32,000 nt of DNA from an uncultured bacterium (GCA_963704705.1 OY969931.1:1320001-1352000); one strand, 5' to 3'. Numbered from the stretch's first letter, positions 790 to 3,672 are shown. Notes: a model not told the origin generated them from the sequence alone. Translations and numbers: made by a program.

Positions 790-3573
790 ATGGAAAGGAT
801 AGAGACCATGCGACAGATCACAACGATCGCGTTTCTTTTTTTCCTCTGCGTCCTGAACATTCGTTCAGCGTCAGCGCAGATCAACCCCTCTATCGGAACT
901 TCCGGCGGCGTTTGCTACGTCGACGGATCCGGTAACGTAGAGTGCCGGGACCTGGTGACCAACACCTCGCTCGGCAGCTTCAGCTACGGGTCCGGTAGCG
1001 GAAACATCGACGCATACGAGAACCTTTTCTTCACAAGCGATCCGAACGGGACTCCAATGATACAAATTCGAGACATGAACGACAACTCAGTCTGTTCCGT
1101 TCAAGGAAATGGCAGGGGGAGTGGAACCCCCAACGATGTTTACGTGACCCACTTTAACCAGAACAAGCTCGTCAAGGTAGCAAGGAGCCCTTTGACCTGT
1201 GCCTCCCCAACTGATATCCCACTTATTGGGAAAAGTCCTGCCAGAATCATTCCGATCGGAGACATCCTATATGTTCTCAACCAGGGATCCCTGACTGTCA
1301 GCCCTTCCATCGACGAGGTTGATACAGCCAACGGTGATGCGGTAACTTCGCATTCTCTTGGCGGAGTGTACGCTGATAGCGTCAAAGACATGACGTACGA
1401 TCCGAGCTCCAACTCCTTTATCGTAACTCACGGCGCAGGCTTTTGGGCCGTGGATCGTTCCACGTGGAACAAAACGAGCTGGGGAGATGTTACTAATCCG
1501 ATGGGTGAAATCGCTTACCTCGACGGGTACATCGTCTCCCATCACCTGGGTGGCAACACCGGCTACATCATCGACCCCACCAACCCAACTGCTGAAACCT
1601 CTGCGTCAATCTTCTTCGGTTTCGGCGCAACTCTGGGCTACAGTTCTATCGGCCTCACCGCGCTCTTTGTGGATGCGAACGGCCTTCACGCATTCAACTT
1701 GTCCGGCGTGGAGCAAGCATTCAGTCCCGTAAGTGCGACTGCCCAAGGTGTGGTCAACGTCAAGCCCTGGGTCACCGGCCCGGTGTGCAACAACGGCACC
1801 AAGGAGACCGGCGAGCAGTGCGACGGTTCCGATCTCGGGACCGAGACCTGCATCACGCAGGGCTTCCTCGGCGGTACCCTGGCCTGCACGTCTTCGTGCA
1901 CCTTCGACACTTCCGGCTGCATCTCCCAGATCTGCCTCAACGGCACCAAGGAGGGCACCGAGGAGTGTGACGGCAGCGACTACGGCGGGGCAACCTGCCA
2001 GACGCTGGGCTTCGTGGGCGGCTCCCTGAGCTGCTCCGGCACCTGCACCATCGACACGAGCAACTGCACCATGTGCGGAAACAACAGTGTCGATGCGGGT
2101 GAGCAATGTGACGGCTCCAACCTCAACGGCCAGACCTGCCTGTCGCGGGGATTCGATGGCGGCACCCTAGGGTGCAGCGGCAGTTGTTCGTTCGATACGA
2201 GCAGCTGCACCACCATCACCTGTGGCAACAGCATTGTCGAGGGCAACGAGCAGTGCGATGGAGCCAACCTCAACGGGCAGACCTGTGTTTCGCAGGGCTA
2301 CGCAGGCGGAACTCTCGCCTGCCAGCCCGGCTCCTGCGCGTTCGATACCAGCGGCTGCACCATGTGCGGCAACAGCAGTATCGACACCGGTGAGCAGTGC
2401 GACAGTGCCAACCTCAACGGCGCTTCGTGCGAATCCCAGGGCTACCCTGGCGGAGGCACTCTCGCGTGCTCCGCCAACTGTTCCTTTGACACGTCATCCT
2501 GCAGCATGAGCACCTGCGGGAACGGCGTTATCGATAATGGAGAGACCTGCGACGATAACAATGAGACGGACGGTGACGGCTGTTCGTCAATTTGTCAGGT
2601 CGAAGACGGATACGAGTGCAACGGCACTCCGTCCGACTGTTCTCTCCTTTGTGGCAACGGCGTTATCGATGACGGTGAGGAATGTGACACCAATGACTTT
2701 GGTGGCCTCACCTGCACCGACTTCGGTGGTGACACGGGTGCACTCACCTGCACCCAGGCCTGCACCATCAACTCCGGCAACTGTCCCTCGTGCAACGAGA
2801 GCGGACTGGTGCAGCAGCTTACCTCCGATGATTTCGACATCAGTCAGCTTCAGGGCAGACTCAGAGAGACCTATGACCAGGCCATCAATGACCTGCAACC
2901 CATGGACCTCGTTGCTAACTGCGAAGACGTCGAGATCTACGGTGTCACTGGCCCGGCCATTGTCGTGGATGTGGAGGAGGGCAAGTACGTCCTCTTCCGT
3001 GTTCAGACCGGAACCTTCACGATCGACCGCCTCTTCTTCTCCCGCTACGGAGCGGCAAGACTGGCGGTCTCGATGGATGTTCTCACCGAACACGAGATCT
3101 ACGGCGATGGAGATGTGGTCGTCATTCACACTGGCGAAGACGTCTTCGTGAAACGTGGTTGGAACATCATCGGTACTGTCGGTACCATCTATGGTGTCGT
3201 TTCCGCCACGTACAACGAGCGCCAGAAGAAAGATGGCTGGTTCTGGGCTCTGATCCCTCAAACCGATGAACTCGAGCCCACTGAGTTCGGTAACGAACTC
3301 AACGGCATCATCATCGGTATGGACGATACTGGCCTGCCGTACTACATCGACAAGGCCAACGCCCAGGATCTCTCCGAGATCGGGCGCAAACCCCAGCCCC
3401 CCAAGAAGAAGGGGTGTGCCGGGTGCTCCCAGTCGGACGGAGCGACGCCCACCGGCGTCATGATGTTCGGCCTTCTGATGTTCTGGCTCCTTTGGAGCGT
3501 GCGACGTTCACGTCGTAGTGCCCCGGCCCGCATCAAGAAGAACGATCGCAAGTCCCGCAGTCGGCTTTCATAG
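790..3573 (+). CDS. secreted cysteine-rich-repeat surface protein with a MYXO-CTERM-like C-terminal sorting tag (TraA-like architecture)
   Basis: 927-aa ORF with GC-rich third positions. The alternative start ATG 808 gives the signal peptide MRQITTIAFLFFLCVLNIRSASA. The N-terminal ~300 aa carry YVTH/YVLN-type strands and may be a beta-propeller (weak). Seven six-Cys ~46-aa repeats of CGNxxxDxGEQCDG type follow. The C-terminus is KKKGCAGCSQSDGATPTGVMMFGLLMFWLLWSVRRSRRS. Confidence 0.9.
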   Translation: MERIETMRQITTIAFLFFLCVLNIRSASAQINPSIGTSGGVCYVDGSGNVECRDLVTNTSLGSFSYGSGSGNIDAYENLFFTSDPNGTPMIQIRDMNDNSVCSVQGNGRGSGTPNDVYVTHFNQNKLVKVARSPLTCASPTDIPLIGKSPARIIPIGDILYVLNQGSLTVSPSIDEVDTANGDAVTSHSLGGVYADSVKDMTYDPSSNSFIVTHGAGFWAVDRSTWNKTSWGDVTNPMGEIAYLDGYIVSHHLGGNTGYIIDPTNPTAETSASIFFGFGATLGYSSIGLTALFVDANGLHAFNLSGVEQAFSPVSATAQGVVNVKPWVTGPVCNNGTKETGEQCDGSDLGTETCITQGFLGGTLACTSSCTFDTSGCISQICLNGTKEGTEECDGSDYGGATCQTLGFVGGSLSCSGTCTIDTSNCTMCGNNSVDAGEQCDGSNLNGQTCLSRGFDGGTLGCSGSCSFDTSSCTTITCGNSIVEGNEQCDGANLNGQTCVSQGYAGGTLACQPGSCAFDTSGCTMCGNSSIDTGEQCDSANLNGASCESQGYPGGGTLACSANCSFDTSSCSMSTCGNGVIDNGETCDDNNETDGDGCSSICQVEDGYECNGTPSDCSLLCGNGVIDDGEECDTNDFGGLTCTDFGGDTGALTCTQACTINSGNCPSCNESGLVQQLTSDDFDISQLQGRLRETYDQAINDLQPMDLVANCEDVEIYGVTGPAIVVDVEEGKYVLFRVQTGTFTIDRLFFSRYGAARLAVSMDVLTEHEIYGDGDVVVIHTGEDVFVKRGWNIIGTVGTIYGVVSATYNERQKKDGWFWALIPQTDELEPTEFGNELNGIIIGMDDTGLPYYIDKANAQDLSEIGRKPQPPKKKGCAGCSQSDGATPTGVMMFGLLMFWLLWSVRRSRRSAPARIKKNDRKSRSRLS
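1786..2796 (+). repeat. about 7 tandem ~138-bp coding repeats (six-cysteine units)
   Basis: Units begin CNNGTKETGEQCDG, CLNGTKEGTEECDG, CGNNSVDAGEQCDG, CGNSIVEGNEQCDG, CGNSSIDTGEQCDS, CGNGVIDNGETCDD and CGNGVIDDGEECDT. Nucleotide strings such as gacacgagcaactgcaccatgtgcggaaacaacag and gataccagcggctgcaccatgtgcggcaacagcag recur. Confidence 0.9.
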
Positions 3574-3610
3574 CTGACAAGCGGTGGCGATAGCGACAAC
3601 AACCTCTAGC

Positions 3611-3644
3611 CCCGGCTTTCCATCGTGGAAGCCGGGCTTTTTTT
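3611..3644 (+). terminator. intrinsic terminator of the GC-rich gene
   Basis: cccggctttcca / tcg / tggaagccggg forms an 11-bp GC-rich stem with one bulge, followed by c and T7 (3638-3644). Confidence 0.8.
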
Positions 3645-3672
3645 ATGCCCTTTTTTATGCTAAAATATAGGG

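Follow-up and report, generated by a model that had tools for sequence, protein, structure and literature searches.

A GC-rich surface-protein gene that is probably an old resident of an AT-rich lineage of the Candidate Phyla Radiation

When a gene stands out sharply in base composition and encodes domains that look foreign, has it been acquired from elsewhere, or can it be an old resident? This question is raised by a stretch of 32,000 nucleotides from an uncultured bacterium (GCA_963704705.1 OY969931.1:1320001-1352000, referred to below as the window), where a surface-protein gene at positions 808-3573 (plus strand, 921 amino acids) has a G+C content of 57.8%. The window as a whole has 40.5% and encodes mostly housekeeping proteins (EF-P, PheS/PheT, TopA, a class A penicillin-binding protein, Ham1, an ECF sigma factor, HU and a CHASE2 cyclase). 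The G+C content switches within about 60 nucleotides of the start codon and of the terminator, and the base counts given in an earlier, sequence-only reading (G+C 40/60 at 1741-1800 and 13/60 at 3961-4020) are exact. That reading regarded the gene as a horizontally acquired cassette for a receptor similar to TraA of Myxococcus xanthus. As shown below, the evidence as a whole is best explained otherwise: this is probably a lineage-specific cell-surface protein gene of an AT-rich clade of the Candidate Phyla Radiation (CPR), vertically inherited at a fixed locus.

The open reading frame (ORF) extends from 790 to 3573 and would encode 927 amino acids from an alternative in-frame ATG at 790, whereas the public database copy begins at the second ATG, at 808. 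The latter has the better Shine-Dalgarno sequence (GGAAAGGA at 792-799). The ORF is not a product of chance, as illustrated by a match to TIGR02232 (E = 1.9e-12), by the presence of full-length orthologs and by a ratio of non-synonymous to synonymous divergence (dN/dS) of 0.16-0.4 throughout the gene. The many antisense ORFs within the region are by-products of its GC-richness.

The orthologs have 36-73% identity, and NCBI lists two of them under "Patescibacteria group bacterium". Among GTDB genomes, the nearest relatives of PheT are found in Candidatus Peribacteria, Candidatus Peregrinibacteria or Patescibacteria single-cell genomes. We compared the loci L002, L003, L004, L005/L006, L088/L089 and L090 (the most distant), which derive from JGI, Logan and NCBI assemblies. 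In all seven of the Peribacteria/Peregrinibacteria contigs, each assembled independently, the gene occupies the same slot, between a minor-pilin-like cluster upstream and the CHASE2 cyclase downstream. The last gene of the upstream cluster enters the window with its 3' part (1-574, plus strand; ORF 68-574; 405-435 amino acids for the whole gene) and ends in ...GFVIQQ before the stop codon, a C-terminus that is also found in L002, L003, L004, L005 and L088 and in the upstream DNA of L090. Genes farther upstream in this type IV minor-pilin-like cluster encode N_methyl domains and have weak ComGE/ComGD/GspH matches. On the other side, the order is CHASE2 cyclase, EF-P, ECF sigma factor, Ham1 and GT4 glycosyltransferase as far as each contig reaches. 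The interval between the surface-protein gene and the cyclase varies: L002 (13202-15548) and L003 (12770-13339) each contain two extra small genes there, and one of those in L003 is a small ORF with a G+C content at third codon positions (GC3) of 0.65.

The conserved gene order across independent assemblies excludes a chimeric join and a recent insertion. An assembly or binning chimera could account for the sharp compositional junctions, but the same junctions and gene order recur in assemblies of independent origin (JGI, Logan and NCBI), some of them single-cell genomes, and this explanation can practically be dismissed. A recent acquisition of a Myxococcota-type cassette by this genome would agree with a GC3 of 0.72 against about 0.30 in the flanks, and with a repeat region that is 40-61% identical to many Myxococcota proteins, where both the repeat type and the C-terminal tag described below are typical. 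However, the best homologs lie in equally AT-rich relatives, an outcome that the sequence-only reading had itself named as a refutation: the orthologs in the seven related contigs are syntenic and equally GC-rich, and synonymous divergence (dS) is comparable to that of the neighbours. For the surface-protein gene dS is 0.7-1.6, whereas the flanking genes have values of 0.24-1.0 for close relatives and are saturated for distant ones. The head and the C-terminal domain of the protein are without relatives outside the clade, with 12 matches for the latter among 1.84 billion representative proteins; a Myxococcales homolog has a GC3 of 0.98 rather than 0.72; and no tRNA, flanking direct repeat or mobility gene was found at the borders of the gene. 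Recent acquisition is thus exceedingly unlikely, and the horizontally acquired cassette of the sequence-only reading falls with it. As for an ancient transfer, in which the repeat and tag modules would have come from Myxococcota-like bacteria or gone to them, the data argue neither way.

Next, we consider how a resident gene came to be so GC-rich. Of the 22 other ORFs in the window, 21 have a GC3 of 0.21-0.44, against 0.72 for this gene; only an ORF at 16034-16711 (ORF2) comes closer, with 0.58. GC3 is raised in all domains of the protein (0.63-0.79), and the compositional shift lies at the codon level and does not result from amino-acid composition. In the orthologs GC3 is always between 0.68 and 0.76, versus 0.2-0.4 in their neighbours. 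To what extent such a composition could have been inherited from a donor was estimated from four-fold degenerate sites by a simple F81 treatment. In the three deepest pairs (W-L003, L003-L004 and L002-L003, where W is the window), only 10-18% of the backbone four-fold sites are un-resampled, and the four-fold sites of the gene itself are equally resampled. An ancestor with a G+C content of 1.0 at these sites (GC4) is predicted to have reached at most 0.54-0.58 by now, whereas 0.71-0.76 is observed. As about 80-90% of the backbone synonymous sites have been resampled, neutral amelioration should have erased the signal, which means that the gene is at a GC-rich equilibrium of its own. Synonymous changes polarised by parsimony point in the same direction, with a per-site rate from AT to GC that exceeds the rate from GC to AT and an equilibrium GC3 of about 0.6. 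In the cyclase the direction is reversed, with an equilibrium GC3 of about 0.41. The gene therefore has its own stationary, mainly C-ending composition, which is not the trace of a recent transfer.

A related possibility is that the gene was transferred into the ancestor of the clade long ago and that its present GC-richness is a relic that has yet to ameliorate. The frequencies at its four-fold sites (A 0.12, C 0.49, G 0.20, T 0.19) do look like those of a secreted-protein gene from Myxococcales (A 0.01, C 0.71, G 0.27, T 0.01) after dilution by roughly half. However, the resampling bound applies here even for a starting GC4 of 1.0, the four-fold sites of all lineages are at 0.64-0.76 in spite of equal resampling, and the rate from AT to GC exceeds its reverse in this gene and not in its neighbours. 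We see only a small chance that a relic explains the composition.

The codon usage of the gene is characteristic. Its four-fold frequencies contrast with a background of C 0.13, G 0.16, A 0.33 and T 0.38; NNC exceeds NNG in all eight four-fold boxes, with C 2-2.5 times as frequent as G; the fractions of AAC, TAC, ATC and TTC are 0.76-0.89 and those of GAG, AAG and CAG 0.70-0.79. This C-ending pattern is repeated in all orthologs. The excess of C over G was tried as an argument to exclude a Myxococcota-like origin and was rejected: the Myxococcales homolog is equally asymmetric, and the asymmetry is thus uninformative on origin. The idea that the bias optimises translation, as in an S-layer-like gene with very high expression, was likewise rejected, since the HU genes of 11 genomes show the opposite usage. 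The HU gene of the window (21797-22072, minus strand) has no C and 4% G at its four-fold sites, and over the 11 genomes the HU frequencies are A 0.42, T 0.50, C 0.05 and G 0.03, with an NNG fraction of 0.18. HU defines the high-expression codon dialect of the clade, which is opposite to that of the surface-protein gene.

The history of the gene differs between its segments. The leader and signal peptide match L005 with 95-99% sliding identity and repeats 1-2 with 86-95%, whereas for the rest of the gene (1964-3573) L002 is the closer match, with 80-94%. The propeller head is no nearer to one than to the other (51-67% nucleotide identity, dS of about 2), while the segments that flank it have a dS of 0.06-0.5. 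There is a corresponding conflict over the nearest relative, which is L005 according to the housekeeping genes and L002 according to the whole protein. The gene is a recombinant mosaic. Based on this pattern and the dS of about 2, we read the head as an old, exchanged and hypervariable allele, as would be expected for an exposed surface that faces ligands or enemies.

Recombination suggests two further explanations of the composition. In one, the gene is a recombination hot spot where GC-biased gene conversion raised GC3, which fits the clear mosaic of L005-like and L002-like segments around a head that is distant from both, and the disagreement between housekeeping genes and this gene on the nearest relative. 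Such a bias from weak to strong base pairs is blind to the strand, however, and predicts otherwise than the excess of NNC over NNG in eight of eight boxes. Moreover, G+C content falls within about 60 nucleotides of the start and stop codons, and the evidence for recombination concerns this gene, not the other GC-rich ones. We consider gene conversion unlikely, although it deserves to be kept in mind. In the other, alleles are imported recurrently from GC-rich relatives by homologous recombination through conserved flanks. The genomes of Candidatus Peribacter riflensis have 58.5% GC (PMC4736985), close to the 57.8% of this gene, which is mosaic and has a conserved leader that could act as a recombination anchor. 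A GC-rich reservoir was not found: wherever a member of the C-terminal domain family could be located, its backbone was syntenic and AT-rich, and the PheT neighbours retrieved all have 38-44% GC. Import is quite unlikely on this evidence. The most likely maintaining force is gene-specific and consists of selection on the messenger RNA or its decoding, which we favour over biased gene conversion and over import from unseen GC-rich relatives. Selection could, for example, favour long-lived mRNA in ultrasmall cells that have few ribosomes, or a deliberately slow translation of exported proteins that are rich in disulfides.

The surface-protein gene does not stand alone. Over the 213 ORFs of 15 sequences (the window and 14 loci), GC3 is raised in all tag-bearing ORFs, and hydrophobic N-termini are found in 15 of the 22 ORFs with high GC3 versus 51 of the remaining 191, a count that is descriptive only as it includes non-independent orthologs. 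In this clade, at least two further genes for secreted proteins share the GC-rich equilibrium. It does not extend to every exported protein, as the 881-amino-acid product of 24751-27396 (plus strand), which has a hydrophobic N-terminal segment and is matched by neither Pfam nor NCBIfam, is encoded with the normal AT-rich composition. Between the cyclase and EF-P genes, the relatives have another GC-rich gene (GC3 0.71-0.87), whose product resembles a lipoprotein, at 17987-19063 in L002, 15585-16601 in L003, 8130-9182 in L004, 15102-16139 in L005 and 13938-14990 in L088; in the L003 copy an SLH domain was recognised. In the window the cyclase and EF-P genes abut at 5700-5702, and the lipoprotein-like gene is absent there.

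What kind of protein is held at this composition? The N-terminus is a predicted Sec-type signal peptide (808-876, plus strand), read from the sequence as MRQITTIAFLFFLCVLNIRSASA, with cleavage predicted after ASA and before QIN. Its n, h and c regions and the AxA-type site are conserved in the orthologs, in agreement with the signal peptide recognised before. The following domain of about 300 amino acids, which the sequence-only reading left undescribed, is a YVTN-like beta-propeller head of about 27 strands (877-1770, plus strand). AlphaFold2 (AF2) models amino acids 30-327 as an all-beta propeller with a predicted local distance difference test (pLDDT) score of 88.2 and a predicted template modelling (pTM) score of 0.89. 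The best structural match in Foldseek is the YVTN propeller 1L0Q (template modelling (TM) score 0.71, 19% identity), followed by BtuG and AztD, and TIGR02276 matches one ortholog. The archaeal S-layer propeller 1L0Q, BtuG and AztD resemble the head at the level of the fold only, and no function can be transferred from them. Propellers are generic binding scaffolds.

Seven six-cysteine repeats, which presumably form a disulfide-rich stalk, follow the head (1786-2790, plus strand; amino acids 333-667). The units are 45-50 amino acids long and contain 42 cysteines in total, and the underlying DNA has a periodicity of 141-150 nucleotides at 62-77% identity. The number of units was counted correctly before, but the consensus proposed for them fits only five or six of the seven. 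Their assignment to the Myxococcus cysteine-rich repeat is confirmed by hidden Markov model (HMM) searches, in which both TIGR02232 (46.7 bits, cutoff 20.8) and DUF4215 (35.2 bits, cutoff 27) exceed their curated cutoffs and TIGR02232 matches seven of seven orthologs. These curated models score only two to three of the units. Unit 6 (amino acids 576-620) scores best and is of the canonical TIGR02232/DUF4215 type, and its sequence match in the PDB is the repeat of pappalysin-1/2; the other units belong to a GF-GG-L-C...FDTS-C subtype that is common to many Myxococcota proteins. More than 1300 proteins, mostly from Myxococcota, share the repeat region at 40-61% identity. In Myxococcota DUF4215/TIGR02232 proteins and in pappalysin, the same six-cysteine module is found, but in the Myxococcota proteins it is joined to FG-GAP/VCBS, RCC1, SRCR or FGE-sulfatase domains, whereas here it is combined with a head and a C-terminal domain that are specific to the clade.

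This lineage-restricted C-terminal domain (2791-3399, plus strand; amino acids 668-870) consists of one helix and a mainly beta-strand domain (AF2 pLDDT 87.8). It measures about 200 amino acids, shorter than the roughly 280 assigned to the post-repeat region before. No significant fold was found in the PDB, where the best matches were FecR-like anti-sigma domains (E = 0.09, TM score of about 0.4). The 12 matches of its profile were obtained at E <= 1e-3; the true ones share the full architecture, and the family comprises about nine clusters at 50% identity.

A tripartite tag (3400-3519, plus strand) comes next: KKKGCAGCSQ, a spacer, a hydrophobic helix and RRSRRS. In detail, G-C-x-G-C-S is followed by a spacer of 8-12 residues, a helix of about 18 residues and the Arg cluster. 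The protein does not end at RRSRRS, as had been thought. An extra basic tail of 17 amino acids and the stop codon occupy 3520-3573 (plus strand; APARIKKNDRKSRSRLS, as read from the sequence), and a similar tail (...IxxNxRKSR) follows the Arg cluster in most orthologs. A closely similar ending is found in ORF2 (16034-16711, plus strand, 225 amino acids), the second GC-rich secreted gene of the window, which encodes a signal peptide and a G-C-N / helix / RRRSRRS tag with the tail SSGCNAAAG...FLFLTASWFWRRRSRRSLK. ORF2 belongs to a family of eight proteins that, unlike the surface protein, end soon after the basic cluster. Its orthologs are convergent to pheT in related genomes and have a GC3 that is 0.09-0.31 above the locus median. 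ORF2 was considered as a carrier of the same C-terminal domain and rejected (hhalign E = 0.8). G-C-[S/N] is invariant in 25 sequences (13 members of the surface-protein family and 12 of the ORF2 family), whereas the surrounding residues vary freely. The same tag thus occurs in two unrelated secreted families of this window, both encoded on one contig of 1,374,545 bp, and the shared G-C-[S/N] / helix / basic ending supports a real sorting signal.

MYXO-CTERM tags and the CPBP-family myxosortase (MrtX/MrtC/MrtP, core model NF040914) have been described for Myxococcota and Bradymonadales only (Haft preprint 10.1101/2023.06.07.544157; Guo, Haft and Wall 2025, PMC11980579), and two close, non-adjacent cysteines are the usual MYXO-CTERM pattern (Haft preprint 10.1101/2023.06.07.544157). 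The tag found here is similar in its tripartite layout, in an invariant cysteine that often has a second one nearby, in the signal peptide of the substrates and in its presence across unrelated proteins of one genome. It differs in a score at the cutoff, in the G-C-[S/N] signature, in the basic tail past the Arg cluster and in its CPR host, as the Peribacteria/Peregrinibacteria lie outside the known range of MYXO-CTERM. The earlier assignment to this class stands for the Cys/helix/Arg architecture, while the HMM score is only marginal: TIGR03901 gives 20.2 bits against a cutoff of 20.0 (E = 5.9e-4), and four of seven orthologs match at E <= 0.1. ORF2 has no TIGR03901 match at E <= 0.1 and only a weak match of its tail to NF041936. 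Judged by its layout, the tag appears to be a lineage variant of the MYXO-CTERM class in a CPR bacterium.

Taken together, these observations allow a broader reading. A class of secreted-protein genes, mostly tagged with G-C-[S/N] or encoding lipoproteins, would be held at a GC-rich equilibrium by selection on transcripts or their decoding, opposite to the high-expression dialect of the clade and persisting through complete synonymous turnover, and MYXO-CTERM-type sorting would operate in CPR bacteria. We put this combination forward tentatively. Several points also weigh against our main explanation of the gene and its protein. For the pairs W-L004 and L005-L004, the amelioration bound is 0.64-0.65 and near the observed 0.64-0.68, so that the amelioration argument rests on the other deep pairs. 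The codon usage of the surface-protein gene (C 0.49, NNG 0.75) is unlike the dialect of HU (four-fold A+T 0.92, NNG 0.18). The match to MYXO-CTERM lies just at the cutoff, with three of the seven orthologs failing at E <= 0.1. The 17-amino-acid basic tail is atypical for the MYXO-CTERM class and would also fit an uncleaved type I membrane anchor. A crude motif scan, which is less than an HMM search, covered about 250 kb of Peribacteria DNA and found no CPBP/myxosortase-like gene. Finally, it is from the architecture that we deduce a location at the surface, the binding of ligands and the formation of disulfides.

Part of this bears on whether the C-terminus carries a processed sorting signal at all. 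It could be the plain stop-transfer anchor of a type I membrane protein, which would be consistent with the marginal TIGR03901 score, with a conserved basic tail on the cytoplasmic side past the Arg cluster and with the failure of the motif scan of related loci to find a candidate protease; within the 32-kb window, out of a contig of 1.37 Mb, no protease was matched in Pfam or NCBIfam either. However, an anchor does not need the invariant G-C-[S/N] just outside the helix in two unrelated families. A plain anchor is a real but less likely alternative to the sorting signal.

The overall plan of the protein is reminiscent of Myxococcus xanthus TraA, which also has a variable head with polymorphic alleles, Cys-rich repeats and a Cys-containing C-terminal tag. 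This parallel of head, stalk and tag is the part of the TraA-like claim that holds. The head of TraA is PA14-like and TraA has a TraB partner, in another phylum and another envelope, whereas here the head is a propeller without a PA14 match and no TraB-like neighbour was found, as a pilin-like cluster and the CHASE2 cyclase flank the gene in all loci. The protein also has an additional C-terminal domain. CPR cells are regarded as having no outer membrane to exchange. The shared module order and the polymorphic, mosaic head notwithstanding, there is only a very slight chance that this is a TraA-type receptor for kin recognition and outer-membrane exchange.

A closer comparison is offered by Candidatus Peribacter riflensis, of the same bacterial class. 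About 20 large extracellular proteins that are rich in Cys and vary between strains are encoded in its genomes, and they weakly resemble Myxococcus repeat proteins and pappalysin (Anantharaman et al. 2016, PMC4736985). The pappalysin match is reproduced by the protein studied here. As similar proteins have already been reported there, the Cys-rich extracellular protein type is not new for the Peribacteria class. The case differs from ours in that those genomes have 58.5% GC and no compositional contrast is reported; in the passages considered, a C-terminal Cys tag, propeller head, conserved leader or fixed locus is not mentioned for these proteins either, and the likeness is one of description (PMC4736985). 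What remains of interest is a GC-rich equilibrium that is maintained in a particular class of genes, together with the Cys-tag system of these CPR bacteria.

From the domain architecture, which is observed, we infer steps of export, tethering and processing and a role for the head. The protein would be exported via Sec. Its propeller head would be held off the cell by a stalk of the seven disulfide-locked repeats and the clade-specific beta domain, and the C-terminal Cys tripartite signal (G-C-[S/N], transmembrane helix, Arg cluster) would tether it. A sorting enzyme would probably recognise the tag and may also lipidate and cleave it. The head would be the variable, ligand-facing part, which fits contact with other cells, phages or substrates. 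At the DNA level, the synonymous sites turn over at the pace of the backbone, toward a separate GC-rich and mainly C-ending equilibrium.

Expression of the gene appears to be organised separately from that of its neighbours. A sigma-70-type promoter-like site (581-609, plus strand) consists of TTGACA, 17 nucleotides and TG-TAATAT, with 10 of 12 consensus matches and an extended -10 element, and both hexamers are kept in seven loci. An AT-rich, structured 5' leader (610-807, plus strand) contains a long hairpin (629-685), a second one (719-741), an invariant palindrome TTGTCAA-N6-TTGACAA (684-703) and the Shine-Dalgarno sequence (792-799). The upstream region of 230 nucleotides is 75-93% identical to four relatives, versus 58-83% in a control intergenic region, and its core is recognisable even in L090. 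In an RNAalifold consensus of seven sequences, 10 pairs are changed on both sides, four of which (22-73, 24-71, 36-59 and 43-52) lie within the long hairpin, where several G-U/G-C alternations are found as well. A helix that may sequester the Shine-Dalgarno sequence was also noticed. The leader motif occurs once per locus; the palindrome was looked for upstream of the other GC-rich genes and does not recur there. The only resemblance to Rfam is weak and non-significant (lysM-TM7, RF03005, 18 bits, E = 0.43), and the leader, in the conserved region 575-807 that also contains the promoter, could be an undescribed cis-regulatory RNA. An intrinsic terminator (3611-3646, plus strand) has a 10-bp stem with seven G-C pairs followed by a T-run. 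With its putative promoter, conserved structured leader and strong predicted terminator, the gene seems to form a transcription unit of its own.

Across the window (32 kb), no tRNA and no Rfam match at the gathering threshold was found; PHROGs gave no match either. Between pheT and pheS, an ORF of 165 amino acids (19199-19696, minus strand) has a weak thioredoxin-domain match, and its annotated 3' end overlaps the start of pheS; it may be relevant to disulfide formation in Cys-rich exported proteins. In the gap upstream of pheS, a patch of 53-59% GC (20900-21200) contains a 69-amino-acid CxxC...CxxC ORF (20895-21104, GC3 0.70). The patch was examined as a conserved gene or RNA and rejected, as it has no Rfam match and is not kept in relatives, which carry different small GC-rich ORFs at its position. 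The most AT-rich ORF of the window (27528-27950, plus strand, 28% GC) encodes an IS200-like Y1 transposase (PF01797).

Genome scans should take note of these results: where G+C content jumps sharply and the encoded domains look foreign, the gene may still be a long-standing resident, and to call horizontal transfer from composition alone leads to misassignment. A synonymous equilibrium that survives saturation, against both the mutational bias and the high-expression preference of the clade, provides an unusual test case for selection versus biased gene conversion. If the tag is read correctly, Cys-containing tripartite sorting signals, so far associated with Myxococcota and Bradymonadales and, in related forms, with Synergistetes, some Proteobacteria and Thermococcales, would extend to the Candidate Phyla Radiation, and the G-C-[S/N] / helix / Arg signature could be used for a census of CPR surface proteomes and, through phylogenetic profiling, for finding the cognate enzyme. 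With its hypervariable head, rigid stalk and adjoining pilus cluster, the protein is a plausible candidate for environmental contact by uncultured, probably host-dependent cells.

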